A stretch of DNA of 40,234 nt from an uncultured Chloracidobacterium sp. (lineage in GTDB: Bacteria; Acidobacteriota; Blastocatellia; Pyrinomonadales; Pyrinomonadaceae). Numbering within the stretch: the stretch's first letter is position 1; the number at the start of each line of letters is the position of its first letter. Location: positions 1-40,234 of the forward strand of contig CAZWSK010000003.1 of the NCBI GenBank assembly GCA_964636445.1, given 5' to 3'. The notes under the pieces are model-generated. The model worked only from the letters and a program-made list of their open reading frames with translations, searched no databases and was not told the DNA's origin. Shown one piece after another: positions 12,288-32,517 of this stretch. The position numbers and the translations under genes were made by a program.

Positions 12288-12326
12288 TGTGAAACGTTTC
12301 ACACTCAAATTGTGAAACGTTTCACA
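12288..12326. promoter_or_regulatory. Two tandem perfect 16-bp palindromes TGTGAAACGTTTCACA (CRP-type TGTGA-N6-TCACA)
   Basis: Site 1 is 12288-12303 and site 2 is 12311-12326, 23 bp centre to centre. Flanks (AAAATGTGA...TCACATTTT) also resemble the CRP consensus. They lie in the 400-bp divergent region between the debranching enzyme gene and the ECF sigma gene. Confidence 0.6.
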
Positions 12327-12463
12327 TTTTCAAAAACACGATCGGTCTTCCCCCTCATGAAACATAAGTACATGCCGTGGGGCCCTCCGACTGAAGTCGC
12401 GACGATTTCGCTTTTTACAAAAAACAGGTAAAATTTTAGTGCACCCCAAGAAAGCTCTCGAAT

Positions 12464-13036
12464 ATGAACGATGACAAGCCATCGGAGATAACCCGCATTT
12501 TGCGCGAGTGGAATGACGGCAACGAAGCTGCTAAAGAGCAGCTGCTGCCATACGTCTACGATGAGCTGCGCCGGCAGGCCCGCATAATGATGGCGTCTGA
12601 GCGCGGAAACCACACGCTCCAGCCGACGGCTTTGGTGCACGAGGCATTTATCAAACTCAGCAAGGATTCCGGCATCGCCTGGTTGAATCGAACCCATTTT
12701 TTCGGCATCGCGTCGCGCCTGATGCGTCAGATCCTGATCGACCACGCGCGGCTGCACGCGACCGCAAAACGTGGAAACCGGCCGATACACTTCTCGCTCG
12801 ACGACGTGCAGGTCCCCGTCGATAAGCGTGCAGATTCGCTCTTGGAATTGAACGAGGTGCTCGACCGCCTAGCGAAGCTTGATGAGCAGCAGGCTTCGAT
12901 AGTCGAGATGCGTTTTTTTGGCGGCATGACCAATCAAGAGATCGCCGAATGCCTGAATATATCGGAGAGGACCGTCGTGCGCGACTGGCAGGCCGCCCGA
13001 CTCTGGCTGTACAGGGAATTGAATTCGAAGCGTTAG
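12464..13036 (+). CDS. ECF-type RNA polymerase sigma factor (TIGR02999 / ECF43-like, kinase-associated group)
   Basis: The N-terminus ITRILREWNDGNEAAKEQLLPYVYDELRRQAR...GHTLQPTALVHEAF is typical of the TIGR02999 family. Region 4 HTH MTNQEIAECLNISERTVVRDW. A Ser/Thr kinase gene follows directly. Confidence 0.88.
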   Translation: MNDDKPSEITRILREWNDGNEAAKEQLLPYVYDELRRQARIMMASERGNHTLQPTALVHEAFIKLSKDSGIAWLNRTHFFGIASRLMRQILIDHARLHATAKRGNRPIHFSLDDVQVPVDKRADSLLELNEVLDRLAKLDEQQASIVEMRFFGGMTNQEIAECLNISERTVVRDWQAARLWLYRELNSKR

Positions 13037-13108
13037 CAAAAATCTTGGCTGATTTTTCTGACATTTTACGCATATTGGTTTGAGACCGAGCTATCGCGCA
13101 CGCAGCCG

Positions 13109-15844: not shown

Positions 15845-15845
15845 T

Positions 15846-17285: not shown

Positions 17286-17344
17286 ATATCTCCTTGCGTG
17301 CGGAAAGCGCTGAGTCAATTCTGAGTTCGCCCCGCAACGGCGGC

Positions 17345-17360
17345 TATGACCCAGGTCACA
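17345..17360. promoter_or_regulatory. Candidate Crp/Fnr-family operator TATGACCCAGGTCACA (copy 1 of 3)
   Basis: Quasi-palindrome in the porin/crp divergent region. On the porin strand it is followed 21 nt later by the -10-like CAGAAT (17323-17318). Confidence 0.5.
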
Positions 17361-17409
17361 TACCGAGTTCGATAACCCTGGGCCGAAGCGCTAAAATTGA
17401 GTTATTGCT

Positions 17410-18042
17410 ATGGCGCAAGTCGACGACAAAATTCTAGAGATGGTGGCGGAGCGGTCTTCTGCCAAGCGATTTTCGACAGGGGAGATCGTATTTTCCGAGG
17501 GCGACGACGCGACTTTCCTGCCGACGGTGGGCTCCGGCATGGTTAAAATGGTCCGTTATCCGGAGCTCGGAAAAGAGGTCATCGTCGGGACGTTTGGTGC
17601 GGGGGAGATATTTGCTATTCCCCCGGCGCTCGACGGCAAGAGTTTTCCAGCGACGGCAGTCGCAATGGAAGATTCCGAACTCCTGATCATGCCTCGAAAC
17701 GAGTTTAAGGCCCTTATGGATCGTTCGCCGAAATTCTCGGCGGTAATTCTTGAGCAAATGTGCGGCATTCTTCGCCAAAAGGCTGATACCGTGCGGATAC
17801 TTGCAACGCCGTCCGCCGAACAGCGTATCGCCGGCATTTTGCTCGGCATCGTCGGCGACATGAATGGCAACGGCCCAGTTCGCATCGATCACCGTCGCCA
17901 GGACATCGCCGACATGGCGGGACTGACAATTGAGACGACGATCCGCTCGATTAGGCGTATGTCATCTCGCGATATGTTCAGGATAGTCCGCGGCAAGATC
18001 TACATCGATTCTCTCGCGCCGCTCAGACGGCTGGCCGAGTAG
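17410..18042 (+). CDS. Crp/Fnr-family transcriptional regulator without an FNR-type Cys cluster
   Basis: cNMP-binding-like beta-barrel (FSTGEIVFSEGDDA...GAGEIFA). C-terminal HTH RQDIADMAGLTIETTIRSIRRM. There is only one Cys in the protein. Confidence 0.88.
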   Translation: MAQVDDKILEMVAERSSAKRFSTGEIVFSEGDDATFLPTVGSGMVKMVRYPELGKEVIVGTFGAGEIFAIPPALDGKSFPATAVAMEDSELLIMPRNEFKALMDRSPKFSAVILEQMCGILRQKADTVRILATPSAEQRIAGILLGIVGDMNGNGPVRIDHRRQDIADMAGLTIETTIRSIRRMSSRDMFRIVRGKIYIDSLAPLRRLAE

Positions 18043-18061
18043 GCTCTACTTTTTTGGCCTG

Positions 18062-18077
18062 TATGAGGCAGGTCATA
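18062..18077. promoter_or_regulatory. Candidate Crp/Fnr-family operator TATGAGGCAGGTCATA (copy 2 of 3)
   Basis: Centre is 59.5 nt upstream of the ric ATG. The -10-like CACAAT lies 21 nt downstream. The SD AGGAGG precedes the ATG at 18129. Confidence 0.5.
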
Positions 18078-18128
18078 TTCCACGAACTCCCAAACACGCA
18101 CAATGTCATAAGTCACTAGGAGGACTTT

Positions 18129-18869
18129 ATGAATCTAGACTTGCATACAAAAACAGTTCGCGAGATCGCACTTGCGATGCCGATAACAACGCGCGTTTTC
18201 GAGGAATACAAGATCGATTACTGCTGCCATGGCCATGTAAATTTTGACGAGGCATGTATTCACGCAGGGTTGGATCCCGACGCAATGGTGGAAAAGATCG
18301 ACGGCGTTGTGGGTGATCTCGGCAACCGGGAACTCGACTGGTTGCAGACGGCCGCTCTTGCCGAGGTTATCGATTATATTATCGACAAACACCACGCCTA
18401 TACCCGCGACGAGATGACGCAGTTGACGCCGTTGATGAACAAAGTGGCCACCCGTCATGGAGATCATCTGCCGTCCCTCATTGAGCTGGAAGCCACATTT
18501 CAGTCCCTGTGCGACGAATTATTCCCGCACATGATGAAGGAAGAAAACGTTCTTTTCCCGTACATCGAGGAGATGGAATCACGGCGTGATAAAAAGATGT
18601 CGCCGGCATTTCCGCCGTTCGCGACTGTTCGCAATCCCGTCAACATGATGTCGATCGAGCACGAACAGGCCGGCGAGCTGCTGGTCAAGATGCGTGAACT
18701 GACGGACAACTACACGCTGCCTGAATGGGCCTGTCCTAGTTTCACGGCACTGTATCATCGTATGGCCGAGCTAGAGGCCGACCTACACCAGCACATTCAT
18801 CTCGAGAACAATCTGCTCTTCCCGAAAGCAGTCGAGATGGAACAGGAACTGTTCGCAGCGGCGGTGTAG
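18129..18869 (+). CDS. ric: Iron-sulfur cluster repair di-iron protein (RIC; ScdA/YtfE family)
   Basis: ScdA_N-type N-terminus ITTRVFEEYKIDYCCHG. Hemerythrin-like His/Glu motifs (DKHHAYTRDE, HMMKEENVLFPYI, EHEQAGE, HIHLENNLLFP). Confidence 0.88.
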   Translation: MNLDLHTKTVREIALAMPITTRVFEEYKIDYCCHGHVNFDEACIHAGLDPDAMVEKIDGVVGDLGNRELDWLQTAALAEVIDYIIDKHHAYTRDEMTQLTPLMNKVATRHGDHLPSLIELEATFQSLCDELFPHMMKEENVLFPYIEEMESRRDKKMSPAFPPFATVRNPVNMMSIEHEQAGELLVKMRELTDNYTLPEWACPSFTALYHRMAELEADLHQHIHLENNLLFPKAVEMEQELFAAAV

Positions 18870-18872
18870 ACT

Positions 18873-19697
18873 ATGGCAATGTCCGCAACGATCTCAAAAC
18901 CCAGGCCCGTGCGGCGTGTTCGCCTCACGCAGATCCTACTTCCCACCGAGCATGGGTCCTGGGGCTTTTTGTTCGAACCGATCGTTGCCGGCCTTGCCAT
19001 TGCGTTCTCCCTCGGCAGTGTCTGGATAGCGGTTGCCGTGGTCGGGGCTTTTATGGCACGGCGGCCGCTCCAGGTGCTGATAAATGTGTGGCGTCGGGGT
19101 GATCCGAACAGCATAGCGCCTGTTGCTGCGAACTTCCTCGCCGCGTTCTCGATCCTGACAGTCGGCGGTGTTGTCGGCGCATACGTCTCGGCGGGGCCGC
19201 AAAGCCTCGTGCCGCTGGTGGCGGTATTGCCGCTCGCTCTCTTCCAGTTGTGGTACGAGATCTCGCGGCCCGGCCGTCAGCTGTTCGCAGAGATGTCGGG
19301 CGGCATCGTGATGGGCGCTACGGCCGCGGCGATGGTGATCGCGGCCGGGATGTCCTGGCCCATAGCCGCAGGGCTTTGGTTCATCTTTGCGGCACGTTTC
19401 CTCCCGTCGATCCTGTATGTTCGGAACCGCCTTGCCCTCGAGAAAGGGAAGCCGATGTCACACGCCATTCCGATCACCGCCCACATCGTCGCGCTCACCG
19501 GCGCGGCTGCGCTCGCGGGCGCCGGCATCATTCCGGTGCTGCCGGTCGCCGTATTCTTCCTGTTATTTCTTCGAGCCGCCGTCGGCCTCTCACCTCTGCG
19601 TCGACGCGTTAAGGCAAAGAGAATCGGCGTTTGGGAGGTTATCTATGGGGCATTATTGGTGGCTGTCGTTATCTTCTCGTACCATTCGCAGGCCTAA
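18873..19697 (+). CDS. YwiC-like integral membrane protein
   Basis: About 8 TM helices. The N-terminal LPTEHGSWGFLFEP motif is typical of the YwiC-like family. It starts 3 nt after the ric stop, so an operon is likely. Confidence 0.65.
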   Translation: MAMSATISKPRPVRRVRLTQILLPTEHGSWGFLFEPIVAGLAIAFSLGSVWIAVAVVGAFMARRPLQVLINVWRRGDPNSIAPVAANFLAAFSILTVGGVVGAYVSAGPQSLVPLVAVLPLALFQLWYEISRPGRQLFAEMSGGIVMGATAAAMVIAAGMSWPIAAGLWFIFAARFLPSILYVRNRLALEKGKPMSHAIPITAHIVALTGAAALAGAGIIPVLPVAVFFLLFLRAAVGLSPLRRRVKAKRIGVWEVIYGALLVAVVIFSYHSQA

Positions 19698-20332
19698 ACT
19701 CCTGCTCCACACTCGAACATCGTATCTTCTTCCTCCGCGAGGATCGGCAGAGCCGCCTCGCGGAGCTTATTTTTGTCCTTATCGGGCCCGACGCGTGCAA
19801 ATAGCGCCTCACCGGCAAGTTCGAGGTATTCGATCCCTGACCCGGCAAGCAGGGCGTTCATCTTTTCCGAATATTTCGACAGGTGGTCGTCGATGAACGC
19901 CGCGGCAGCGTCGGCCGTGATCTCGGCATTTTGGTCATCACCACACTCTCGTGCATACAGCTCTTTGAGCCGCATATAGCCCACGAAACCCGCCTCGACA
20001 GCGATGTGGTCGGGAACTTCGTTCGTTTTGGTCTTGAAACCAAACGCGTCGTAGTACGCAGAGAGCTCGGACAGCATCTGGCCGGGCTCGACCCAGCTGC
20101 GATAGCTGACCTCACGGCCCGGAGCCGGGCCGCCGGGACCGAATATCGAATGAAAAAATCCTTCCGACGCCTCTTTCTGTGCCGCTCTCGCTGCTTTTGA
20201 GAGCTCTTTGTCGTGTACTTGTTCGCCGAGCTGCGAGACCTGGCTGAACCAGTCGTCCTGCGGGCAATCGAACAACAGGCTGATCAAACGCCATTCGGCC
20301 GCCTCGTTCAATAGTTGATTAGCGTCTTTCAT
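19694..20332 (-). CDS. TorD/NarJ/DmsD-family redox-enzyme maturation chaperone (delta subunit)
   Basis: EWRLISLLFDCP and PDHIAVEAGFVGYM motifs are typical of the nitrate reductase delta / TorD family. It is the last gene of the operon. Confidence 0.78.
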   Translation of the reverse strand: MKDANQLLNEAAEWRLISLLFDCPQDDWFSQVSQLGEQVHDKELSKAARAAQKEASEGFFHSIFGPGGPAPGREVSYRSWVEPGQMLSELSAYYDAFGFKTKTNEVPDHIAVEAGFVGYMRLKELYARECGDDQNAEITADAAAAFIDDHLSKYSEKMNALLAGSGIEYLELAGEALFARVGPDKDKNKLREAALPILAEEEDTMFECGAGV

Positions 20333-20336
20333 ATTT

Positions 20337-20828
20337 TTAGGTATTCGCTGCCTTCAGAGCCTCGTCGCGTCGATGGACACGCGACATGACAGCGGCCTTT
20401 TCGTCTTTCGTCAAAGTCTCATCGAGCAGCGGATAGAGATGCTCAGCCTCGCGCCGGTCGTGGTGAGCGGATAGCCGCAGATAGAACGCCTCGTGGCCCA
20501 GGATCCGCAATACGTCAGCCTCGATATCAACAGCGTTGTTCAGAGCTGCAGTCGCGTTCTTGAGGACGTCCAGATGAGAGAGCATCTTCTTGTGCTCATC
20601 GAGATAGAGCTTAGGTGCGGCGACGGCAGGGAATTCACACCTTCCGGAATAGACCGGGATCAGCACCTCTTCCTCGTCCTTCATGTGCCGCATCAGCAGG
20701 GCTTCATAGCCCTCGAGCCGCTTGAGCGCGGAGGCGTGGTCGAGCCGCAGAAGAGCACGCTGGTGTTCGAGAAAGATAGCGTCTAGCTCATTGTGAACGC
20801 TCATTAAGCTTGCGATCGAAAGTGTCAT
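20337..20828 (-). CDS. Hemerythrin-like (HHE cation-binding) protein, 163 aa
   Basis: His/Glu patterns VHNELDAIFLEHQ, HMKDEEEVLIPVY, DEHKKM and HHDRREAEHLYPLL. Start set to the ATG at 20828, which forms an ATGA overlap with the upstream stop. Confidence 0.68.
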   Translation of the reverse strand: MTLSIASLMSVHNELDAIFLEHQRALLRLDHASALKRLEGYEALLMRHMKDEEEVLIPVYSGRCEFPAVAAPKLYLDEHKKMLSHLDVLKNATAALNNAVDIEADVLRILGHEAFYLRLSAHHDRREAEHLYPLLDETLTKDEKAAVMSRVHRRDEALKAANT

Positions 20829-21667
20829 TTCAACATCATCGGCACCCAACCGGTGCGCATTTTCCGTGCTCCGACCTCGCCGTGCGCCGCTTCCCAGACC
20901 GCAAACGCCGTCTGAGACGGCGTCGAAGACGAAAACGCCGCTGGCACCGGCCGTGAGATCACGACGGCCCAGCCGGTCTTCGTTCTTATGCCCTTGCCCT
21001 TGGACGTCGTAGCCGCAGCGGGCGTTAGCGTCCCGGGCCCTTCGGCTATCATGTCCTCGACCGGCTGCTCGCGTGGGCCCGAACGCCGATTGCCGACGGC
21101 CTTGGCGGGGGCATAACGCGCGGCTGCGTCGGCAAGCGCTTGCGGGTTTCCTTCGAGCGAGCTGGCCGTCGATGGATAATGATCGATGCTCGCATTCGGA
21201 TAAATGCTCTTAATGTCATCCGTAGCCCGGCCTTCGACGATGGCCTGCCAGTCCGCACGCCAGAACGCGATCTCGACGGTCTTCCCGGTCTCGCCCATCT
21301 GCGGAGCAGGAACGTTCGCCTCGATCTTTGCCGGGATCTGGACGGCACAGCCGTCGATAAAATGCTTCGGCCCCGGCATGTCATTCTGCGTGTCATCGAG
21401 CCATTCGAGCCTGAAAGCGATCTGCTGCCCGTCGGAGATGGCCTTGACCTGTACTTCCGCCGTCGAGGGCTGCATCACGCGCGGGTCGACGAGATCCTGC
21501 GGGATCATTTTCGAGATGTGCAGCGGCACATTTGCCCACACGCCCGCGTCCGGGTCGAGCGTGATCTCGGGAACCTGAGCGACCTGGACTTCCGCGGTCG
21601 CGACCTGTGTACGGCTGCACGCTGCGGCGAACAAACTAACCAAAACTACGAGTAATAACAGTCGCAT
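20825..21667 (-). CDS. Gamma subunit of a type II DMSO-reductase-family enzyme (EbdC/SerC/DdhC/NxrC-like heme-b domain), predicted lipoprotein
   Basis: Signal MRLLLLVVLVSLFAAAC with a lipobox-like FAAC. It sits directly after the FeS beta subunit. The C-terminal FAVWEAAHGEVGARKMRTGW resembles the EB_dh-domain terminus. Confidence 0.65.
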   Translation of the reverse strand: MRLLLLVVLVSLFAAACSRTQVATAEVQVAQVPEITLDPDAGVWANVPLHISKMIPQDLVDPRVMQPSTAEVQVKAISDGQQIAFRLEWLDDTQNDMPGPKHFIDGCAVQIPAKIEANVPAPQMGETGKTVEIAFWRADWQAIVEGRATDDIKSIYPNASIDHYPSTASSLEGNPQALADAAARYAPAKAVGNRRSGPREQPVEDMIAEGPGTLTPAAATTSKGKGIRTKTGWAVVISRPVPAAFSSSTPSQTAFAVWEAAHGEVGARKMRTGWVPMMLK

Positions 21668-21680
21668 AAATCCACTCTCC

Positions 21681-22810
<1,130 letters not shown>

Positions 22811-22823
<13 letters not shown>

Positions 22824-23290
22824 AGTTTGTTGTTCTCCGTAGTTGTGGGGTTAAGATCGGCGGCCCATTTGATGTGCCGGCCTTTGAAGATCGCCGCGAT
22901 GAGCAGCGTTGATGCGAAGATGCTGAATAATAGAACGACCGCATAGGCGAAGCGCGGAAGTTCGGCATCGACCTTTCCGCGAACGATGCCGACGACCGAC
23001 GCGATGCCTGCGAAGAGTACTGTCACGAGTGCTGCCGTCGCTATCAGCTTGTGTGTCTCGAGTGCTGCAGCCCGCGAGCCTTCAATCGTTGCCTTAACGG
23101 CCTGCCCGGCAAATTCGCCCGTGATCGCGACCGCTACAGTGAATAACGCCATCAGGGCGATGATCTTGAGCGCGAACCGTTTGCGGGGCGCACTCTGGGT
23201 TATGTAGCCCAACGCCAAGACGAGCGCGCCGATAACAAAACCGATCGCAGGGTAATAGTTGACCAAAAGATGTACTTTTAGGGCATCCAT
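22811..23290 (-). CDS. Small 4-TM membrane protein (DUF2231-like?) between the alpha and beta subunit genes
   Basis: Four hydrophobic helices. N-terminal [13 protein letters not shown] resembles the DUF2231 HPxxVHFPI motif. There is a 0-nt gap to the alpha stop and a 13-nt overlap with the beta start. Confidence 0.55.
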
Positions 23291-26200
23291 CTATTTCTTC
23301 TTGATAAATTCGCCGGCGAGATACTTCTTCATCGCGTCGGACTCGTTTCGCGGCCTGATGCCGAGCTTAACGGGACGCCATAGCGGCTCGTCTCCGATGC
23401 CGCCGGGCTCGGCTTTCGTGATCTTCACGAAGGCCTCACGCGGTGCTCCTGTCGGACAGTGGATATCGGCAGCAAATCCCTTGCCCATGCCCTGGCCGAA
23501 CATTCCTTTCCGCACCAGCGAATCGGTCATCCACGTCGGCTTGAGCCAGCCGCGTGTGGCGGACTGATGCGAGCCGGTGCGGAACATGGCCTGATAGTTC
23601 GTTCGCGGATTCTTCGCTAAGCCGTCCTTACGTTCCTTCGCTCCCTGCACAGAACCGGGCGTAGCGGCGTACATGTTGAACCACATTCGCGTCACGCCGC
23701 GCGGCGTGCCGGGATAGTAGCGTGCACGGCACATAAGGCGGGCGAACTCATAGTTCTTCTTGTCCTTCTGCCAACCCCGGAAAGGCCGATCCTCGGGGTC
23801 GCCGTCGATCCAAACGTAATCGCCGTCGTTTATGCCCAGCTCTCGCGCATCCGACGGGTTGATGTCCACATACCCCTCCGTCACGAACGGCTGTCGTTTG
23901 TCGTGGCGGTAAACGTCGCCGAACGGGCCAAACAGCATCGCGTTCATGTCCGTATCAATCGGCGTAGTATGAGCGCCGTGACGATACTTCGGCGTATGGA
24001 AAATGAACTTGTAATCGTCCTTGATCAGCGGATGCGGCTTGTTCTTGGCCTCGGCCCATGTGTAGACGACATTGCGGCCGCAACGCGTCTCGCACGACAG
24101 GTCGTCGCGCTTGACGCCGTAATCCTCAGGCTGAGCCGGCCGCAAGGCCTCGTGCGGGGCCGAGATGATGATGTTCGGCTCGTAGAATGTCGAGTCGACC
24201 GGTTCGCGGTGGACCGGCAGATTCTCGCCCGCCTCTATGAATTCGTCCTCTTCGCGATACATCTCGAGCCGGCCGCTCTTCGTGTACCACGGCGTATTGT
24301 CCTCGAGCTGGTCGTAACCGACGTTTTTAGGTGTTGTGCGACTGTTCATCAGCGCGGGGACGCCGTTCAGAGCTTTTTCGTGAAGCTCGTTGAAGTTGTA
24401 GCCTTTCGTGTTTGTCGAGTTATCGAGGATCCGCTGCAGGTAGATATCGGTCTTGCCCTCGCGGACATATTTCCAATAGTCGTTGAACCGCTGATCGCCC
24501 GTCAGGTCGGCGAGCTTGGATGCGACGGTCGCGAACACCTCGATGTCGCCCATCGTGTTGAAGATGCGCTCGATCGGCGTCTTGGGAAAAACGAGCAGGA
24601 ATGGATTCGTGACCGACGCGGTCATGTCGGGATGCTTCAATTCCGCCCATGAATCGACGCCAAAGACCACGTCCGCCCACTCACAGGATGTCGACCACCA
24701 CCATTCGTTGACGCAGATCATCTCGATCCGCGGCAACGCGTTGACCACCATGTTGTAGTGCCACTTTACGTTGCCAAGGATAGAATTGGCGTTAGCAAAC
24801 CAGAGTGACTTCGTGGGACACGGCATGTGCGATTTGCCTGTCAGCAGCCGGTTGCCAACACGGAGAGGGTGGTCCTCGTGGTTGTAATAATGTGCGGACT
24901 CAGCGTCCCAGTACTGTTTTGGCCGGGCCGGCTTCGCCGGGTCAAGCTCAATGTCAAACGGATTCTCAGCGATCCATTGCGGCGAGCCGTTGAACAAGGC
25001 GGTGCGGTAATTGCCCGCGTACGAGCCGACATTACCGCCGATCTTACCGACGTTTCCCGTCAGGGAAGCGAGTAGGAAGACGTCGCGGTCTTTGTTGTCG
25101 CTGTTAAAGAACTGGTTCGGGCCCATCCCGAGAGCGAACAGCGTCGTGCCGGGGTCCTTGGCAAAGTGACGTGCGAGCTTCTCGATAGCGGCCGCGGGTG
25201 CCCAGGTGAGTTCCTCGACCGTCTTCGGGTCAAAGTGCGCGGCATACTCCTTGACGAGATCGAAAACCGGACGGCACTTCACTTTGCTGCCGTCGGCGAG
25301 GGCGACCTCGACAACGCCTTCAAGCTGTGCGTCGCCCGCCTTGGAATTGTCGCCGACATCGTCGCGTGTCAACGCGACAGGGGCGCCTGTTTTCGTGTCC
25401 CAAACGACATAGTCGCCCCACTCGTTGCGGAGCTTTTCGGGAACTATATTCTTGATACCTTGTTGTATCGGCGGCGGCTCTTTCTCGCCTTCTTTGACGA
25501 TATAGGTCTGTTTGAGTTCGGCCGGGCCGCCGCCGAAAACCTCTGACGCCTTTAGATATTTGAGCGTGTCCATCCTGACGAGGATCGGCATATCCGTCCA
25601 TCGTCTGACGTAATCCTCGTCATAAAGCTTTTCCTGCATTATGACGTTTGCGAAGCCGAGTGCGACCGCCGGCGTCGTGCCGGGACGCACGACGACGACC
25701 TCGTCCGCCTTTGTCGCCGTCGCGGAATATTCGCATGCAATGACGACGACCTTTGTGCCTTTCATCCTCGCCTCGGTCAGCCAGTGTGCGTCGGGCATCT
25801 TGGTCGTTATCCAGTTCATTCCCCAGACGACGACTGTCTTAGCCTGTTCGACCGAGTTAAGATCGAATTCAACCGTCTGCTGGCCCGTGACCATCGTGTG
25901 GCCGGGCGGCAGGTCGGTGTGCCAGGAGTAATTGTCAAAGCCTCTCGCTCCGACAGCCTGATCGGGCCCGACGCCGCGGATCTTGCTGTCGAGCAGCGCC
26001 ATCGAATTTGCCATTCGGTACATACCGAACACTCGCGTGATGCCTAGCAGCGGCATACCGCCGCGGAACTTCATCACACGCGTTCCGATGCCGCGCGTCG
26101 CCTCGATCGTAGCCTCGTCGTAGTGCTGTTCCTTCAGGCGACGCATTCCTTCCTCGCCGGTGTAGGTCTCGGCGACATTCTTTAGAACCGCTGCGACGAT

Positions 26201-26728
26201 CACGGCGGCTTCGTCGTGAGACATCCGGACCCATTCGTCTCGGCCGCGGTTGAAGTATGTTTCGCTCGGTTTGCCGTCGTTGCCGCGCGGGAATCCGTCC
26301 TCGTACCACTTCTTAAATCCCGCACGGACCATCGTGCCGTTCACGCGGCGGTCGCCATAGAAGCGTCGCGTCAGAGCGAGTCCCTTTTGACAAACACGCG
26401 GGTCCCAGCGGTGCGAGGTGCCGTTGCCGAGCAGGTCGACGGCTTCGCCGTACTTCATCGTCGGCCCGATGCGCGTGATGACGCCCTGGCGTACGTGGGC
26501 GTTGAGGAGGCAGTTATGCGTGTCGTTCGGAGCACAGGTGAAGGTGTATCGCGAATCGTATTTCCAAAGGTCACGATATGCGTTTTCCCAGTCGCGATTC
26601 GGATAGACGGCGAGCGGATTGGTTATCGCGTCGAGGCCCCAGGCGTTTGTTGCCGACATCGCAAGGGCGCCGAAACCCGCGGCCGATACCCTCGCCATGA
26701 ACTCGCGTCTCGATAATTCGTTTTTCAT
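23291..26728 (-). CDS. Tat-exported molybdopterin catalytic subunit, NxrA / periplasmic NarG-like (type II DMSO reductase family), 1145 aa
   Basis: Twin-arginine signal [28 protein letters not shown]0 motif C65-X3-D69-X3-C73-X39-C113 ([11 protein letters not shown]...RVCQKG). Mo-ligand Asp context YSWHTD272LPPG aligns with E. coli NarG YDWYCDLPPASP. SD GAGGA lies before the ATG. Confidence 0.9.
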
Positions 26729-26737
26729 AACTGTCCT

Positions 26738-28399
26738 CTACTTCGCTTTTAATGACCGCAAATAAACCACGAGCGCTTCGATCTCAGACTGTGTCAGGAC
26801 GGGTCGAGTGGGCGAACCGTTCGCAAATCCCTGCATCACCGTTCCGCGTCGGCCGTTTGTAATGGTGCCGACCAGATACGTGTCAGTGGCCGCCGCGAGA
26901 AACGCAGGATTGCCAAGTGCCGGCCCTTCACCGCCGGCTCCGGCCTTGCCGTGGCAGCCCGAACAATTCGCGCTGAACAATCGCTCGCCGGTTGCCACAT
27001 CGCCGGCCGCCCATATCTGGGGCTTCGCGTCGGGTACGGCCTGAACGCCGCCGCCGAGAGCACGGATGTATGCGATCACGGAGCGGATCTCGTCGTCGTT
27101 CAGCCCGTTCTCCCGTTCACCCCACGCGAGCATCGGCCGCCCGGGGCGGCCGCTCTTGATGTTTGCTAACAGGAACTCATCCGATGCCAGAGCGAGAAAG
27201 TCCGGATTGGTGATCGACGGATTCGGCGCCAGGCCCGGATAACGGGCGCCTCCGCCATTCGCTGCGTGGCATGCCGCGCAGACCGCTGAATAGATCGTCG
27301 GACCGTCATTGGCAAACTCACGCTCACCGAAGCGCATTGCTCTCACTCGGTCTTTCGGCAAGAAGACGTCCGGCAGCGTCCGCCGCCGGAGGCTCAGCGT
27401 GTAGAGCGTCAGCAGATCGATCTCATCCTCGTTCAGGCCAAGTACGGGCATTTGCGATCCCGCAACAGTCGAGGCCGGCGATCGAAAATGCTGAGCCATC
27501 CAATTTGCCACGGAACGCTCGCCGGGAACGCGTGAAAAGTTGAGCTGATTCGGGTCTTTGAGGCCTGAGATCGAGAGGTTAAGACCTGCGTCACCGCCGA
27601 AACTTCCGATGGTGTGACAGCCGGCGCAGCCGAGAGAGTTGTACTGTGCCTTTGCCTCTATCAGCTTCGACGCACCCATTTGCGTGTCGAGAAAGATCTT
27701 GAGAGCGGCTTGGTCCTGCTCGCTGACCTCACGGAAGGAATTCTTCCATGCTCCGTCTGCTGCGGCCTGGTTCTTGGCCAAGTGTGCCGCGTACCATTCG
27801 GCGTTGTAGCCCTTCATTCCGACGACGGAGAGGTCGGGCCCTTCCATTCCCGTGATGTCGCCGCCCGGTCTTACCGTCCCCCCGCGGCCGTCGAGGCGGT
27901 GGCAGGCGTAGCAATCGAGGCGTTCGAAGGTCTTACGGGCATTGTCATACGTGGGCTTATTCGGGACATTCAGCGGTGTATGGCACGTACCGCAGCTCGC
28001 GTACGCATACTTGGCAGGCAGCATCGGCTCGGTCCAGAAATGAACGTTGCCGTGCGCATCGTCCCTCTCGGTCGCCTGTCCCTGGCCTCCGTGGCACGTC
28101 GTGCAGCCCATTTCGCTGACGGAATGGACCACCGGCTTATGCGCGGCACCAACCTTTAATGGGGAAGTGATCTGTTCGCCGGCGGCCATTCCGGTGTGGC
28201 AGGTGACGCAGCGGTCGGTGACCTTGAGATTCGGATTCACGATCTGCCGCAGCTTGACGTCGAGTGGCCCGTCCGCGGTCGAGGCGGTCCCCTGTATCTT
28301 GTGCCAGTCCTTGCGAAAATTCTCGCTGTACGCGGCCGCGACCAGCAGGACGAAAACCCCGAGGCTTGAGATCATCAATAGATACTTGTTCTTGTTCAT
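26738..28399 (-). CDS. Membrane-anchored heptaheme cytochrome c (4 multiheme-type plus 3 class-I-type domains)
   Basis: Seven CXXCH motifs: CVTCH, CTTCH, CGTCH, CYACH, CAGCH, CAACH and CSGCH. N-terminal TM helix YLLMISSLGVFVLLVAAAY. Confidence 0.88.
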   Translation of the reverse strand: MNKNKYLLMISSLGVFVLLVAAAYSENFRKDWHKIQGTASTADGPLDVKLRQIVNPNLKVTDRCVTCHTGMAAGEQITSPLKVGAAHKPVVHSVSEMGCTTCHGGQGQATERDDAHGNVHFWTEPMLPAKYAYASCGTCHTPLNVPNKPTYDNARKTFERLDCYACHRLDGRGGTVRPGGDITGMEGPDLSVVGMKGYNAEWYAAHLAKNQAAADGAWKNSFREVSEQDQAALKIFLDTQMGASKLIEAKAQYNSLGCAGCHTIGSFGGDAGLNLSISGLKDPNQLNFSRVPGERSVANWMAQHFRSPASTVAGSQMPVLGLNEDEIDLLTLYTLSLRRRTLPDVFLPKDRVRAMRFGEREFANDGPTIYSAVCAACHAANGGGARYPGLAPNPSITNPDFLALASDEFLLANIKSGRPGRPMLAWGERENGLNDDEIRSVIAYIRALGGGVQAVPDAKPQIWAAGDVATGERLFSANCSGCHGKAGAGGEGPALGNPAFLAAATDTYLVGTITNGRRGTVMQGFANGSPTRPVLTQSEIEALVVYLRSLKAK

Positions 28400-28400
28400 A

Positions 28401-29951
28401 TCAATGCCCCGGCCATGACGCGGGCGACCAGAAAAAGTCCCAGTTCGGACCGCGGAAATACGTGCCGATCACCGTCAGCACGATGAATCCCGCCAAAAAG
28501 CAGGTGAATAAAGCTAGTGCGCCCGCGCGCGTCGAGTTGTAACGCTTGACAGCCCAGATAGAGAACGCCGCGTAAATTGCCGTGATCACCGTTCCGGGAT
28601 TGACGAACGTGATCACCAACTGTGGTATGTCAGGGAACCACTCGCGAAGCCACCCAAACCGTATCGCGAACGCCTCGACCAGTATCGACGACGCGAAGCC
28701 GACCACGATCGACCATCTCACCAGCCGCCATCCGCCGGGCCCACCGAACCATTCGCCGGTGCCCTCTTTTTCGCGGTCCAAAAAAGGTATCAGTCCGAGT
28801 CCAACGATGCACAGCATAGGTATGCCGATCCCGCCCATGAAGGCAGAGAACGAGACGATCTCCTGAAGACCGAGGAAGTACCAAGGAGCTTTAGCAGGAT
28901 TCTCGGGCACAAGCGGATTTGCAAGTTCCTTTAATGGCGCGTCCGAAACCAATGCGAGCCCGACACAGATCAGTACCGTCAGCATGAGCACACCGAGCTC
29001 GGCGTAGAACAGGTGCGGCATTGACGGGACCGTGTGCTCAGGCCCCGAGTTCACGGCCGGCGTTTTACCTTTTACGATCGCCGCCAGCTGATATGTCTTT
29101 GCCGGCTGATCGGTAAACACGGGATAGAATTCCTTCGCTTCTTCGACCACACGCTCGTCCGCGTCTTCCGGTTTTGCAAGGCCGCCGTCCTTGCGAATCC
29201 GCCAAAAATGGACGGCCATCAGCCCCGCGAGCGTGAGCGGCAAGATCATCACATGTAACAAATAGAAGCGTATCAACGCCTCTTCGCCAACAACCTCAGA
29301 CCCGAGCAGGATCTCTCGCTGCAACCCGCCGATGTCCATGAATTCGGTTACGCCCATCGCGTCCGTGATCTCACGCGGGCTCTGCGCGATGTTCGCGCCG
29401 ATCGTGATCGCCCAGTATGCCAACTGGTCCCACGGCAGCAAATAACCTGTAAAGGACAACGCGAGTGTCGTCACCAACAATCCCCAGCCGATAAACCAGT
29501 TGAATTCCCGCGGATGCCGATACGCAGCTGTATAAAACGCCCGCGCCATGTGCAGTATCACTGCGACAACCATGACGTTAGCGGCCCAGCGGTGAATATT
29601 CCGCATGTACCGGCCCGTTGGCACGATAAAGTGAATGTCCTTGATCGACTGGTACGCCACGTCCGTGTACGGCTTGTAATAGAACATCAGCAGCACGCCG
29701 GTCACGAGTGTGATCAGGAAAGCCGCGGTCGTGATGATGCCGAGCCCCGCCGTAGTCGACCACCGCAATGACCACAGATGTGTCCGTACCGAGTGCAGGT
29801 GCAGAAAGACATTGCCGAATACGAACGACGAACGAGTCCTGTCCGTTTTCGGAGCGCCGCCGCGGAACATCGAGCGGTAAACGCGATACGGTATTGCCTT
29901 CAGGTTCGCCCAGAATTCGTTTAGTGCGGAATACGGTTGTTCAGCCTGCAT
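28401..29951 (-). CDS. Cytochrome b (fused b6 / subunit IV type with extra C-terminal helices) of a Rieske/cyt b complex
   Basis: Heme ligand pairs H-x13-H (IHRWAANVMVVAVILH) and H-x14-H (LHVMILPLTLAGLMAVH). PEWY-position motif APWYFLGLQE. 516 aa. Confidence 0.9.
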   Translation of the reverse strand: MQAEQPYSALNEFWANLKAIPYRVYRSMFRGGAPKTDRTRSSFVFGNVFLHLHSVRTHLWSLRWSTTAGLGIITTAAFLITLVTGVLLMFYYKPYTDVAYQSIKDIHFIVPTGRYMRNIHRWAANVMVVAVILHMARAFYTAAYRHPREFNWFIGWGLLVTTLALSFTGYLLPWDQLAYWAITIGANIAQSPREITDAMGVTEFMDIGGLQREILLGSEVVGEEALIRFYLLHVMILPLTLAGLMAVHFWRIRKDGGLAKPEDADERVVEEAKEFYPVFTDQPAKTYQLAAIVKGKTPAVNSGPEHTVPSMPHLFYAELGVLMLTVLICVGLALVSDAPLKELANPLVPENPAKAPWYFLGLQEIVSFSAFMGGIGIPMLCIVGLGLIPFLDREKEGTGEWFGGPGGWRLVRWSIVVGFASSILVEAFAIRFGWLREWFPDIPQLVITFVNPGTVITAIYAAFSIWAVKRYNSTRAGALALFTCFLAGFIVLTVIGTYFRGPNWDFFWSPASWPGH

Positions 29952-29953
29952 CG

Positions 29954-30433
29954 CTACACCTTTGTTCCTGATCTAACGGTCGTTCCCTCGTCGATATTGA
30001 CGACCGAGCCGTTCATGCTGCACTTGAGCCACGGCAGCGGTTTTGGGGCCGGGCCTTTGCGGACAGTGCCGTCCTTTTCAAAACCCGACCCGTGGCACGG
30101 GCAATCGAATCCCGCACCGCTCGCCTTCACGATGCATCCAAGATGCGTACATATCGTCGAGATCGCATAAACGCCTTCACCGTCGCGAAAAACCGCGACA
30201 TTGCGTCCCGGCGGTATGAACGCCTCGCCGTCGAGCAGCGTATCGGGCAGCGAGACATTGAACTTTTTCGACTGCGTCGCCGAGACCGCGGCTTTCGGCA
30301 GTTTGAGCATTCCGAACACAGAGAACACGAACGCCGCGATCATCGAGCCCAACGCTGCGAAGCCGAGAAAGTCGCGCCGCGGCATCGGCTCAGGATCAAA
30401 TCGCGATTGTTTCTTACCCGGATGTGTCGTCAT
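29954..30433 (-). CDS. Rieske [2Fe-2S] subunit with a Tat-type signal/anchor
   Basis: CTHLGC...CPCHGS Rieske boxes. PRRDFLGFAALG signal. Start set to the ATG at 30433, which forms an ATGA overlap with the upstream stop. Confidence 0.88.
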   Translation of the reverse strand: MTTHPGKKQSRFDPEPMPRRDFLGFAALGSMIAAFVFSVFGMLKLPKAAVSATQSKKFNVSLPDTLLDGEAFIPPGRNVAVFRDGEGVYAISTICTHLGCIVKASGAGFDCPCHGSGFEKDGTVRKGPAPKPLPWLKCSMNGSVVNIDEGTTVRSGTKV

Positions 30434-32343
30434 ACACAGCTCCAATTTGTCTGAAATGTCACCCGCTCCATGGAGATCGCATCGACCGGGCACCGCATCG
30501 CGCACAGGGCGCAGCGGATGCAGCGGTCTTCGTCCTTGAGGATCGCGGAGTTTGCGGCGATATCGGCGTCCTTGCCGAGCGCACGGTCAAACGCATCGCT
30601 CATCTCCTCGCCAAACTCGATCCGGTCCAGTGAGATGAGTTTTAAACATTCCGTCGGGCAAACATCCGCGCAGCCGCCGCAGAGCACGCAGCGCATTCCG
30701 TCGAAAACGGGCGTCACGCCGCAATCGAGACATCGCGATGCCTCGCGCATCGCCTCTTCTTTTGAATAGCCTATTTCTACGACATTCTCCGGATGTTCGA
30801 GTCGCTCCTCGGGCTCGATGGTGGGAACCTCGACGCGGCGGATGGATTCGTAGCCGAGCTCGCGGCGGTATCGTTCGAGGACCTTGTGTGCCTCGATCAC
30901 CTCGCTGCGCAGCTCGCGGCCTGTCAGGTATTGATAGACGGAACGCGCCGCCGATTTGCCGGAGGCGACTGCGTCGATCAGGAGGCGCGTTCCGTGGGCG
31001 AGATCGCCGGCGACAAAGACGCCATCAGCGGTGGTGGACAAGGTCTGTGGATCCACCTTTAACCAGTCACCGCGCATGCGCTCGACGTCTTTGCCGCCGG
31101 CCTCCAGGAATGTGAGTTTTGGTGCCTGGCCGACGGCGAGCAGCACGGTGTCGCAGGGAATGACACGCGTGTCGTCGTCATCGTAGAGCGGGGAAAACTT
31201 GCGTTCGTCGTCATATACGCGCAGGCACCGGCGAAAGGCAACGCCGGTTACGCGGCCATTCTCGTTCCTCACGATCTCGGTCGGGCCCCAGCCGTTGCTG
31301 CGGTCGATGCCTTCCTCGTCGCCCTCGACGATCTCGATAGTGTCGGCCGGCATCTCTTCGGCGTGTTCGAGGGAGACGAGATGAACCTTTGTCGTGCCGG
31401 CCAGGCGAGCCGCCGTCCGGGCGGTGTCAAAAGCGATCTGCCTTACCACCGATCTTGCGACATCGTAAGCGACATTTCCGCCGCCGATGACGACGACCTC
31501 ATCGCCGACCTCGACGGGCTCATTTAAGGAAACGTCCCGCAGCAGATCGACGCCGCCTATCACGCCCGGGCCGTCCTCGCCTTTCAGTCCGAGTGCTCGC
31601 GAGGATTTCGCCCCTACCGCGATGATGACGGCGGCATGATCCTCGCGAAGCTCGGCAAACGTAACATCGCGGCCAACCTCGACGCCGCAGCGTATGTCTG
31701 CCCCAAGAGCTTCAATGACCGCGACCTCGTTCGCGATCAGCTCTCGGGGCAGACGATACGCCGGCACGCCGACGGCGAGCATGCCCGCCGCGACGGGCTC
31801 GATCTCAAAAACGACCGGCTTGAATCCAAGGATCGCCAGGTCGTGTGCGGCGCTGAGTCCTGCCGGCCCGGCCCCGATAATGGCGATCTTCTCGCCATTA
31901 CCGGGCACCACGGCACGGTTGCGAGCGGCGCGGAGGAGTGCCGCTAATTCTTCTACATCGGCCGCGACGGGCGGGATGAAATCCGTTATCTCGTCGACGA
32001 CCTCGCTTACAGGACGTGCTTCGGGCCCGTATTGATCGCAGACAAACCGCTTCAGCGCACGGATCGCTATCGGGCGGTCCTGGCCGACGAACTTGCCGTC
32101 GTCGTTGACCTTCGGGATCTTTCCCCGGCGGCATTCGATCTCGCACGGTGCCCCGCAGATGCGTCCGCAGATCGATGCAAAGGGATTTGGGCCGCGGGCG
32201 ATGAGGTAAGCTTCGTTGAATCGTCCGTCGGCTATCGCCCTCACGTAACCGCGTGCATCTGTATGCACAGGGCAAGCCGCCTGGCACGAGATCAGGCCCT
32301 TGTGATACCCATCGCCCGGGATGTTGACCCTAAGCTGCTGCAT
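30430..32343 (-). CDS. GltD-like NAD(P)H-dependent FAD/FeS oxidoreductase with a C-terminal 2x[4Fe-4S] ferredoxin domain (cytoplasmic)
   Basis: N-terminal FeS region CQAACPVHTD...ICGRICGAPCEIEC. Dinucleotide folds IAIIGAGPAGLSAAHDL and VVVIGGGNVAYDVA. C-terminal CVLCGGCADVCP and CIRCALCAMRCP. No signal peptide. Start moved to the ATG at 32343 because the longer ORF would run into the operator at 32405-32420. Confidence 0.85.
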   Translation of the reverse strand: MQQLRVNIPGDGYHKGLISCQAACPVHTDARGYVRAIADGRFNEAYLIARGPNPFASICGRICGAPCEIECRRGKIPKVNDDGKFVGQDRPIAIRALKRFVCDQYGPEARPVSEVVDEITDFIPPVAADVEELAALLRAARNRAVVPGNGEKIAIIGAGPAGLSAAHDLAILGFKPVVFEIEPVAAGMLAVGVPAYRLPRELIANEVAVIEALGADIRCGVEVGRDVTFAELREDHAAVIIAVGAKSSRALGLKGEDGPGVIGGVDLLRDVSLNEPVEVGDEVVVIGGGNVAYDVARSVVRQIAFDTARTAARLAGTTKVHLVSLEHAEEMPADTIEIVEGDEEGIDRSNGWGPTEIVRNENGRVTGVAFRRCLRVYDDERKFSPLYDDDDTRVIPCDTVLLAVGQAPKLTFLEAGGKDVERMRGDWLKVDPQTLSTTADGVFVAGDLAHGTRLLIDAVASGKSAARSVYQYLTGRELRSEVIEAHKVLERYRRELGYESIRRVEVPTIEPEERLEHPENVVEIGYSKEEAMREASRCLDCGVTPVFDGMRCVLCGGCADVCPTECLKLISLDRIEFGEEMSDAFDRALGKDADIAANSAILKDEDRCIRCALCAMRCPVDAISMERVTFQTNWSCV

Positions 32344-32404
32344 ACTTGTCCGGTGGGAGCCGATTAGACTTACCTCGACGATATAGTCCGGCGAACCGCC
32401 CAAA

Positions 32405-32420
32405 TATGACTCAGGTCACA
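32405..32420. promoter_or_regulatory. Candidate Crp/Fnr-family operator TATGACTCAGGTCACA (copy 3 of 3), with a -10-like hexamer for the 10-gene operon
   Basis: On the minus strand the motif is followed 19 nt later by TATATC (32385-32380). The centre is about 69.5 nt upstream of the ATG at 32343. Confidence 0.5.
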
Positions 32421-32517
32421 TCGGTGAGGAATTTGTGCGAACTGTTGTATTATTTGTACGATCGGTGCTCGCCGGGCTTCTTTTTCCGGCCCTCGGCCAT
32501 CCAAACTCCGCTGATTT

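Follow-up and report, generated by a model that had tools for sequence, protein, structure and literature searches.

The DNA analysed here is a stretch of 40,234 nucleotides from an uncultured Chloracidobacterium sp. (contig CAZWSK010000003.1 of assembly GCA_964636445.1; hereafter the window). It carries a minus-strand operon whose first gene encodes a 637-residue flavoprotein, an oxidoreductase that we call OR. From the conserved gene order around it, its homology to anammox proteins and a family-specific histidine in the accompanying cytochrome b, we conclude that OR is very probably a subunit of a membrane-bound Rieske/cytochrome b (R/b) complex, and we propose below how such a complex could divide the electrons of menaquinol between nitrate and NAD+. 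The operon comprises ten genes with intergene gaps of -13 to +13 nt (Table 1). Because a 174-bp intergenic region (32344-32517) and a divergent plus-strand gene lie upstream of OR, OR is its first gene; the stop codon of OR overlaps the Rieske start, and a GGAG stands about 6 nt ahead of the Rieske ATG. The overlap, the leading position of OR and the presence of a nitrate/nitrite enzyme in the same operon had all been pointed out in the initial annotation of this DNA, and all three are borne out.

The linkage between OR and the R/b genes extends well beyond the window. In a scan of one genome per species, at least 555 stretches encode relatives of OR; the best 80 of these (48-90% identity) were analysed, and the related loci were searched by tblastn with the proteins of the window operon. 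Wherever a related locus has sequence downstream of OR (75 loci), a Rieske gene comes next; the 69 loci that extend far enough all continue with a cytochrome b of about 510 residues, and a multihaem cytochrome c then follows in 64. All four genes lie on the same strand, and in over half of these loci 0-9 nt separate OR from Rieske. By their deposited labels the loci span more than 10 phyla: the acidobacterial carriers are assigned to Blastocatellia, Bryobacterales, Vicinamibacterales, Thermoanaerobaculia and Terriglobia, and the others to Planctomycetota/Phycisphaerae, Binatia, Eisenbacteria, Latescibacterota, KSB1, 'Deltaproteobacteria', Chloroflexota, Ignavibacteria, Abyssobacteria and Victivallales. 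Phylum counts based on such labels call for some caution: the near-identical, acidobacterial-type loci L005, L009, L024 and L030 are labelled Heliomicrobium, Clostridia, Planctomycetaceae or Brocadiaceae, probably through binning or labelling errors. The tie to a bc-type complex that had been suggested for OR thus holds genetically over all of these loci.

What stands downstream of the four genes varies. NXR-type (nitrite oxidoreductase-type) genes follow the module in at least 41 loci, and a canonical type-II DMSO-reductase-family enzyme, above the TIGR03479 cut-off and with its beta and gamma subunits, in 6. Nine loci (L050, L054, L056, L057, L060, L064, L065, L069 and L080), mostly of Planctomycetota, 'Deltaproteobacteria' and Binatota, have a NapA-like partner, a Tat-exported protein of about 910 residues whose score falls well short of the NapA cut-off; it is preceded by a cytochrome c of about 860-890 residues, with ten CxxCH motifs where these were counted (L050 and L054), and NapG and NapH follow in most. 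One metagenomic lineage, with an OR of 44% identity, has a complete cbb3 oxidase cluster as the partner (L083/L084, about 7900-18000), in the order OR, FixS, Rieske, short cytochrome b, subunit IV, cytochromes c, CcoN, CcoO, FixG and heavy-metal ATPase. An OR of 49% identity is followed by Rieske, short cytochrome b, subunit IV and an octahaem protein, and one of 47% identity directly by a cytochrome b. The conserved unit is OR, Rieske, cytochrome b and multihaem cytochrome c, and the periplasmic terminal enzyme is exchangeable: that the order of the module persists while its downstream partner changes argues for OR belonging to the R/b module and not to NXR. Two further observations concern individual carriers. 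The module of L083/L084 stands behind an Rrf2-family regulator and beside glycoside hydrolase genes. Sulfopaludibacter-type Acidobacteria (SbA genomes) have been reported, in a peatland study, to be without nxrAB and dissimilatory nitrate reduction genes (bioRxiv 10.1101/197269); metagenome-assembled genomes labelled Candidatus Sulfopaludibacter sp. SbA3 (L016, L027) carry the full OR-R/b-NXR operon.

OR itself is an iron-sulfur protein of the GltD/NfnB fold that has binding sites for FAD and NAD(P) and carries a 2x[4Fe-4S] ferredoxin domain at its C-terminus, according to its Pfam and NCBIfam matches and to an AlphaFold2 model (mean pLDDT 90.5, pTM 0.90). Besides the N-terminal Fer4_20 domain, a Pyr_redox_2 match covers residues 152-462 (E 2e-23) and 4Fe-4S ferredoxin motifs cover residues 545-626. 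In an alignment of 45 diverse homologues (36-57% identity), 16 cysteines are invariant or nearly so: C20, C24, C59, C63, C67 and C71, all within the Fer4_20 domain, then C538 and C541, and the eight of the two C-terminal motifs. This number would be enough for four [4Fe-4S] clusters. Since the N-terminal domain supplies six ligands only, Cys538 and Cys541 would be the missing ligands that complete its two clusters. Neither the sequence nor its hydropathy profile reveals a signal peptide, a twin-arginine motif or a true transmembrane segment, the sole hydrophobic stretch (177-195) falling within the FAD Rossmann fold. The initial annotation had described a cytoplasmic 637-residue protein with a GltD/DPD-type N-terminal iron-sulfur region, two dinucleotide-binding folds and two C-terminal CxxCxxCxxxCP clusters, and each of these elements is present. 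A longer reading frame from a TTG at 32403 (657 residues) is disfavoured, close homologues being mostly of 637 residues. More than 120 protein clusters share 73-100% identity with OR, which, like the confident structural model, speaks against a chance reading frame.

The closest precedent is found in anammox bacteria. For the R/b complexes of Kuenenia, which carry a putative NAD(P) oxidoreductase on their n-side, it has been proposed that quinol oxidation is bifurcated, with NAD(P)+ as one acceptor. In AlphaFold3 models of these complexes, the two cytochromes b of the dimer hold a novel haem b where they meet; its ligands are the His43 residues of both Kuste4571 chains, and Arg511 of Kuste4570 is its neighbour. 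Subunit IV is modelled with five helices, and the Rieske protein Kustd1480 was measured at +335 mV (all PMC12954380). That cytochrome b and oxidoreductase subunit occur together in the Kuenenia complexes has been reported as well (de Almeida 2016, cited in PMC5600118). The resemblance to these complexes that had been surmised for the window proves to be homology subunit by subunit. A comparison of OR with the anammox NAD(P) oxidoreductases gives end-to-end alignments both with Kuste4570 (34% identity, 306 bits) and with the Scalindua OR (36%, 354 bits). The window cytochrome b is 41% identical to Kuste4571 plus Kuste4572 over 391 residues; the window Rieske protein is 35% identical to Kuste4569, and its top two PDB matches are the Kuenenia Rieske structures 9rk4 and 9rk3. 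The Scalindua OR was reconstructed by hand, its locus (L082, 679-3104) being frameshifted in the Rieske and OR genes; these frameshifts are probably assembly errors, because intact 610-residue proteins exist at 97-99% identity.

The Kuenenia locus (L091, CP049055.1) encodes the Rieske protein Kuste4569, the OR Kuste4570, the cytochrome b Kuste4571, the subunit IV Kuste4572, a hexahaem protein and an HAO-like octahaem protein. Both anammox complexes, R/b-3 (Kuste4569-4574) and R/b-2 (Kustd1480-1485), share with the window the core of a Rieske protein, a b6-type cytochrome b, a five-helix subunit IV and a di-cluster GltD-like flavoprotein, the FAD-containing NAD(P) oxidoreductase subunits being Kuste4570 and Kustd1483. 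As in the window, a membrane-anchored multihaem cytochrome c replaces cytochrome f or c1 in them, and the 4+5 helix topology and the histidine for the extra haem are shared too; the Rieske box CPCHGS-x-F, conserved among the relatives, has the Ser/Phe pattern of Kustd1480. Some differences lie in the arrangement and the surroundings: cytochrome b and subunit IV are fused in the window (516 residues) but separate in anammox bacteria, the OR gene comes first instead of after Rieske, and the partner is NXR, whereas that of Kuenenia R/b-3 is the HAO-like octahaem protein. The host of the window is a heterotroph-like acidobacterium without an anammoxosome, unlike the anammox bacteria.

The cytochrome b offers a direct point of contact with the anammox models. 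Its His51 aligns exactly with Kuste4571 His43 and is invariant in 67 of 67 relatives, as are the haem histidines 120, 134, 233 and 248; it is found in the short cytochromes b linked to OR as well. None of the solved b6f or bc1 chains contains an equivalent of the N-terminal segment that bears His51. By analogy with the anammox models, an extra haem b would be present in the window complex too. On the OR side, Kuste4570 Arg511 sits in the first C-terminal cluster motif (CVLCGRC), and because this haem-contacting arginine lies there, the C-terminal ferredoxin domain would be the docking face of OR. Arg511 does not correspond to the invariant Arg537 of the RCLxC motif. In helix A, the haem c_n motif CxGG is replaced by T-x-G-L-G in the window cytochrome b and in all 67 relatives. 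Three further residues or motifs of the cytochrome b were noted: His58 is 97% conserved; the last residue, His516 (28401-28406, minus strand; ...SWPGH), is conserved in 63 of the 67 relatives and could be a further ligand or contact site; and the segment ahead of it, RGPNWDFFW, has a counterpart, RGPFWSFFW, in the Kuenenia subunit IV.

The nucleotide site of OR allows the initial annotation to be refined. That annotation had spoken of an NAD(P)H module; the pyridine-nucleotide site is there, and the term may really mean NADH. At residues 324-326, preceded by an insertion of 12-14 residues, OR has Ser-Leu-Glu, where our alignments show Tyr-Arg-Arg in 9bov, 8oh5, 9n5u, 5vj7 and Kuste4570. Since Ser-Leu-Glu replaces Tyr-Arg-Arg, the site looks, by the general rule for Rossmann folds, to be of the NADH type and less so of the NADPH type. 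A glutamate at the position of E326 is found in 33 of the 45 aligned homologues (73%), and [SC]LE in 73 of the 80 loci and also in Scalindua. Kuste4570 differs from the window OR both in the motif and in the insertion. As a separate observation, the Scalindua ORs carry the Glu form and Kuste4570 carries Tyr-Arg-Arg, so nucleotide preference may differ among anammox bacteria themselves.

The terminal enzyme of the window operon has the composition of a periplasmic NXR, as predicted from sequence: a Tat-exported NxrA, an NxrB, an EB_dh-type NxrC and a NarJ-like chaperone. NxrA matches the Kuenenia NxrA (PDB 7b04) end-to-end with 870 bits (E 1.5e-260), and on this account the subunit is of the periplasmic Nitrospira/anammox NXR type. 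The 159-residue protein encoded between nxrA and nxrB, whose gene overlaps nxrB by 13 nt, has relatives only in loci of the Blastocatellia/Pyrinomonadaceae type (L001, L002, L004, L006 and L010) among the related loci searched by tblastn; it may be a lineage-specific membrane anchor for NXR.

Taken together, these features lead us to the following scheme. OR would sit on the n-side, that is, in the cytoplasm, where it would bind FAD and NAD(H) and carry a wire of four [4Fe-4S] clusters: two N-terminal ones, completed by Cys538/541, and two in the C-terminal ferredoxin domain. The latter domain would dock on the n-face of the dimeric cytochrome b. There the two His51 residues, one from each monomer, would hold an extra haem b that would link the iron-sulfur wire to haem b_H. 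On the p-side, menaquinol would be oxidised at Qo; one electron would pass via Rieske and the heptahaem cytochrome c to the NXR-type enzyme, which would act here as a nitrate reductase. The second electron would cross the membrane via b_L and b_H and go on via the extra haem, the iron-sulfur wire and FAD to NAD+, so that the sum would be 2 MKH2 + NO3- + NAD+ -> 2 MK + NO2- + NADH (MKH2, menaquinol; MK, menaquinone). We regard this explanation as a whole, with its n-side subunit, four-cluster wire, extra haem and bifurcation, as evenly poised between right and wrong. The bifurcating direction, considered by itself, is tentative, and we give it slightly less than an even chance.

Several considerations favour this direction. 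Acidobacteria use menaquinone, and a Rieske box of the high-potential type together with menaquinone gives the energetic asymmetry that lies behind the anammox proposal. All identified partners of the module are high-potential reductases, either nitrate-type molybdoenzymes or an oxygen reductase, as bifurcation requires. In favour of the scheme as a whole we also count that the closest solved folds of OR are the NADPH-binding bifurcating modules of NfnABC/StnABC and NfnB. As for the role of NXR, its coupling to an R/b complex is thermodynamically sensible only if NXR reduces nitrate.

A number of points weigh against the proposed scheme. A bc-type complex wants a fairly high-potential acceptor in any case, so the pattern of partners does not discriminate between directions of electron flow; the transfer from b_H to NAD+ could be steeply uphill; and heterotrophs have no obvious need to make NADH from quinol. 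Evidence for the association at the biochemical or structural level is confined to Kuenenia, and two details seen there differ in the window: Kuste4570 Arg511 is a glycine in OR, and where Kuenenia and Scalindua have CMGG, the haem c_n site, the window has T-x-G-L-G. Moreover, OR-like proteins with this architecture are also encoded in gene neighbourhoods that lack R/b genes, at 38-39% identity: P0164, whose gene stands next to ACS/CODH, and P0227. A hidden Markov model of the R/b-linked clade, used with distance clustering to place the members of the family, gives 539 for the Scalindua OR, compared with 592 for P0164 and 453 for P0227. Because the non-R/b paralogues are similarly distant and P0164 outscores the Scalindua OR, a single origin of the association between OR and R/b, and strict orthology with the anammox subunits, are not proven by these comparisons.

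The solved proteins nearest to OR are instructive for what they share with it and what they lack. Its best PDB folds are NfnA of NfnABC, StnC, NfnI-L and NfnB, followed by GltD and DPD, and the NfnB/NfnI-L and NfnA/StnC chains (9bov_A, 8oh5_C, 9n5u_A, 5jca_L and 4ylf_B) are the best matches in both structure and sequence. Subunits of the NfnABC/StnABC type have the same FAD/NAD(P) core and N-terminal two-cluster domain as OR, and 9bov and 8oh5 also share its RCLxC motif and the subsequent ferredoxin-type cysteines. The Nfn and Stn enzymes are nevertheless soluble, work with NfnA- or HydB-like partners, use a flavin as the bifurcating site and have Tyr-Arg-Arg, in all of which they are unlike the window OR. 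GltD has the fold, the FAD and NAD(P)H motifs and the Fer4_20 domain in common with OR, but neither GltD nor NfnB has the C-terminal di-cluster domain. DPD resembles OR in the order of its cofactors, as its fold matches show: an N-terminal 2x[4Fe-4S] domain, FAD, a nucleotide domain and a C-terminal 2x[4Fe-4S] domain. In DPD these form one long wire from the N-terminal clusters via the FAD and NADPH domains to the C-terminal ferredoxin domain. DPD has in addition an FMN/pyrimidine-binding TIM barrel that is absent from OR, and its match to OR reaches only 78 bits.

These relatives raise the question of whether OR could be a conventional GltD, DPD or NfnB subunit whose partner is encoded elsewhere, as the common fold and N-terminal iron-sulfur domain would allow. 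We find this hardly credible. The comparison with NfnB and GltD that the initial annotation had called for shows a shared fold with scores far under the family cut-offs of the GltD, GltA and Nfn-type NCBIfam models: 218.6 against 471.75 for TIGR01316 (NfnB), and 159 against 447.7 for TIGR01317 and 169.8 against 482.95 for TIGR01318 (GltD), the latter two being about one third of the cut-off. The NADPH site of the NfnB type, Tyr-Arg-Arg, is replaced in OR, which has the extra di-cluster domain; the 40-kb window holds neither a gltB-sized open reading frame nor an NfnA-like gene near OR; and in all 75 relatives it is Rieske that follows. A role as a glutamate synthase subunit is excluded by the synteny with Rieske and cytochrome b together with the sub-cut-off scores. 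Another alternative is that OR is soluble and merely co-regulated with the R/b genes, as an NfnB/SudA-like NAD(P)H:ferredoxin or polysulfide oxidoreductase, a redox-balancing enzyme or a maturation factor. The proteins of identical architecture without R/b neighbours would suit this, as would the soluble nature of the best solved relatives, the Nfn/Stn modules, and neither a transmembrane segment nor an obvious membrane-binding element was found in OR. Yet a soluble enzyme would leave unexplained why the gene order is invariant, mostly with ATGA or 0-9 nt spacing, over more than 10 phyla and four partner modules, and why OR co-occurs with a cytochrome b bearing a family-specific invariant histidine on the n-side. 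The reported presence of cytochrome b and oxidoreductase in the Kuenenia complexes (de Almeida 2016, via PMC5600118) also speaks against it, and we consider it improbable.

Among readings that keep OR on the complex, the strongest competitor reverses the n-side branch to give an NADH-fed nitrate reductase, in line with one of the two uses that the initial annotation had imagined for the module. Electrons would run from NADH through FAD, the iron-sulfur wire and the extra haem to b_H/Qi, where menaquinone would be reduced, and the quinol would be re-oxidised at Qo to supply Rieske, the multihaem cytochrome c, NXR and nitrate; OR would then be a built-in, non-pumping NADH dehydrogenase. The evidence for association, that is, synteny, His51 and homology, applies equally here. 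The organism of the window is heterotroph-like, with sugar-catabolic genes in the window, and must oxidise NADH, and the NADH-type Ser-Leu-Glu suits a catabolic donor. The arrangement resembles the 'membrane-anchored dehydrogenase' ancestor proposed by Dibrova et al., and the loss of haem c_n with its T-x-G-L-G recalls the four-helix cytochromes b of the dehydrogenase type, as described in PMC5600118; the anammox authors explicitly weighed this option (PMC12954380). What tells against it is the energy yield, which by stoichiometric reasoning would be no better than that of NDH-2 plus a bc complex and below that of complex I (likewise PMC12954380). It would also leave the high-potential-type Rieske box of a menaquinone organism unexplained, and it presupposes an intact Qi site. 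On balance it appears unlikely to us. The other use that had been imagined was nitrite oxidation, in which electrons from nitrite would be driven uphill via NXR, the multihaem cytochrome c and Rieske to NAD(P)+. The molybdoenzyme does face the periplasm and belongs to the Nitrospira/anammox type of NXR, an enzyme that works in both directions in anammox bacteria, according to literature cited in PMC3903129. However, a Qo site running backward needs a low-potential electron from the b haems, so on thermodynamic grounds the reversed module would consume NAD(P)H (confurcation) instead of producing it. The window is without hallmarks of CO2 fixation or of nitrifiers and has neighbours of the heterotroph and nitric oxide (NO) stress kinds, and elsewhere the same module is linked to reductases, namely Nap-like enzymes and cbb3 oxidase. 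Reverse electron flow from nitrite is accordingly a very improbable role for the module.

Outside the anammox bacteria, two lines of literature touch on the membrane part of the proposed bifurcating complex. In PMC5600118, cytochromes b of subfamily G are said to co-occur in many further cases with large, cysteine-rich NAD(P)-binding iron-sulfur oxidoreductases, and the long cytochromes b of clade G' to reside in large conserved operons of undefined function. The co-occurrence of cytochrome b and oxidoreductase in subfamily G/clade G' of Dibrova et al. is as in the window, which is a candidate member; the subfamily G papers make no mention of the pattern of NXR, Nap and cbb3 partners or of the conserved histidine, both of which are seen here. 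In haloarchaea, the periplasm-facing nitrate reductase pNar is clustered with the Rieske/cytochrome b genes narB/narC, which feed it from quinol in an antimycin-sensitive manner (PMC4683180). The two systems are alike in that a periplasm-facing enzyme of the NarG/NxrA family is clustered with Rieske/cytochrome b genes, and pNar is in this respect a precedent for the window operon, but the pNar molybdoenzyme belongs to a clade different from the NXR type of the window. We know of no NAD(P)-binding flavoprotein in haloarchaeal pNar clusters. As a functional analogue of the NADH-fed reading one may name Nrc of Thermus thermophilus, which Cava et al. in 2004 are said to have described as an NADH dehydrogenase specific to nitrate respiration and encoded with the nitrate respiration genes. 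Nrc reportedly consists of an NDH-2-like NrcN with iron-sulfur and membrane subunits, without a Rieske/cytochrome b complex, its proteins being unrelated to OR.

Table 1. Positions in the window of the operon genes, of motifs in their products and of palindromes near the operon.
Feature	Position	Strand	Details
OR (flavoprotein) gene	30430..32343	-	ATG 32343 to TGA 30432-30430; 637 aa; operon's first gene
Fer4_20 domain (DPD/GltD N-terminal FeS domain) of OR	32032..32289	-	PF14691; residues 19-104, E 9.7e-18
FAD-binding motif GAGPAG	31858..31875	-	residues 157-162; G157 and G159 invariant, G162 >=90% conserved
NAD(P)-binding motif GGGNVA	31468..31485	-	residues 287-292; G287-G289 and A292 >=90% conserved
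Ser-Leu-Glu of the nucleotide site	31366..31374	-	residues 324-326; Tyr-Arg-Arg here in NADPH-binding relatives
CLDC pair (Cys538, Cys541)	30721..30732	-	invariant alignment columns
First C-terminal [4Fe-4S] motif CVLCGGCADVCP	30655..30690	-	residues 552-563; CxxCxxCxxxCP
Second C-terminal [4Fe-4S] motif CIRCALCAMRCP	30487..30522	-	residues 608-619; CxxCxxCxxxCP
ATGA overlap of OR stop and Rieske start	30430..30433	-	seen in the sequence
Rieske [2Fe-2S] protein	29954..30433	-	159 aa; PF00355; Tat-type RRDFLG N-terminal; one membrane anchor; CTHLGC ... CPCHGSGF
Fused cytochrome b6 and subunit IV-like protein	28401..29951	-	516 aa; about 9 transmembrane helices (4+5, hydropathy)
Codon of cytochrome b His51	29799..29801	-	aligns with Kuste4571 His43; invariant 67/67
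Membrane-anchored heptahaem cytochrome c	26738..28399	-	553 aa; 7 CxxCH motifs
NxrA-type molybdopterin subunit	23291..26728	-	1145 aa; Tat-exported; end-to-end with Kuenenia NxrA PDB 7b04
Protein with four hydrophobic segments	22811..23290	-	159 aa; between nxrA and nxrB; without Pfam family
NxrB-type FeS subunit	21681..22823	-	380 aa; Pfam/NCBIfam domains
NxrC-type haem b (EB_dh) gamma subunit	20825..21667	-	280 aa; domains; signal peptide
Hemerythrin-like protein	20337..20849	-	about 170 aa; PF01814; start codon uncertain
NarJ/TorD-type chaperone	19694..20332	-	212 aa; PF02613 and TIGR03482; operon's last gene
Palindrome TATGACTCAGGTCACA	32405..32420	.	starts 77 nt upstream of OR ATG; candidate Crp/Fnr-family operator
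Second palindrome copy TATGACCCAGGTCACA	17345..17360	.	ahead of Crp/Fnr-family regulator gene, after porin-like gene

Some features around the operon bear on its regulation. Downstream of it, at 17410-19697 on the plus strand, lie genes for a Crp/Fnr-family regulator that has no cysteine cluster at its N-terminus, for the di-iron repair protein ScdA/RIC and for a YwiC-like membrane protein, which together suggest a handling of NO and nitrosative stress tied to nitrate reduction. A common palindrome, TATGAC-N4-GTCACA, precedes both the operon and the regulator gene, and its two near-identical copies (TATGACTCAGGTCACA and TATGACCCAGGTCACA) are a candidate operator of this adjacent regulator. Taken with the palindrome, these three neighbours would fit nitrate respiration better than nitrite oxidation. 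Boxes with at most 2 mismatches from TGTGAC-N4-GTCACA precede OR in 9 of 76 related loci, where about 1 would be expected; the strict Crp/FNR-box pattern was found upstream of OR in none of the other related loci. A scan of the operon for sigma-70 promoters and terminators was uninformative, its hits being at or below the shuffle expectation. Divergent from the regulator gene, and sharing the palindrome region with it, a minus-strand gene at 15846-17318 encodes a 490-residue protein with a signal-like N-terminus, no Pfam match and a beta-barrel-like C-terminus ending in Phe, which may be a porin for nitrate or nitrite. Elsewhere in the window, two perfect copies of another palindrome, TGTGAAACGTTTCACA, at 12288-12303 and 12311-12326 (23 nt apart from start to start), stand upstream of an ECF sigma factor gene (12464-13036) and look like a tandem Crp-type operator.

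The bifurcation proposal for anammox bacteria and the models of their complexes are already published (PMC12954380). In the literature that we searched, we found no description of the OR-R/b-multihaem-NXR operon or of its Nap, type-II and cbb3 variants, and none of the family-wide conservation of the extra-haem histidine, of the fused form lacking haem c_n or of the NADH-type site. The splitting of quinol oxidation between a high-potential acceptor and NAD(P)+ is an open proposal for anammox bacteria, never shown biochemically, and these bacteria are hard to grow and to manipulate; with an R/b-type complex and OR found in at least 75 species-level genomes from more than 10 phyla, many alternative organisms now open it to testing. 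The family also sets constraints on the mechanism, in that such complexes can do without haem c_n and have nucleotide sites of the NADH type in some cases and of the NADPH type in others. For heterotrophic Acidobacteriota, we read nxr genes as part of a quinol-dependent, nitrate-reducing supercomplex and not as a marker of nitrite oxidation, a reinterpretation that affects how nxr is counted in metagenomic surveys of the nitrogen cycle.

One further idea, which we regard as doubtful, is that the module serves menaquinone bacteria widely as a 'super-charged Q cycle': the second Qo electron would be lifted to NAD+ by way of an extra haem b and a four-cluster wire and not recycled at Qi, and complex I would re-oxidise the NADH. 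Such a lift would be affordable because the span from menaquinol to nitrate or O2 is about 500 mV or more. By a stoichiometric estimate, the yield with NADH recycled through complex I could reach up to about 6 charges per 2 electrons passed to nitrate, compared with 2 otherwise, a yield that nearly reaches what thermodynamics would allow at a proton-motive force of 150-170 mV. If this is true, quinol-based bifurcation to NAD+ would be no curiosity of the anammox bacteria: soil and sediment Acidobacteriota, Planctomycetota, Binatia and others would generally conserve energy in this way, in pairings with NXR-type, Nap-type and type-II molybdoenzymes and with cbb3 oxidases.

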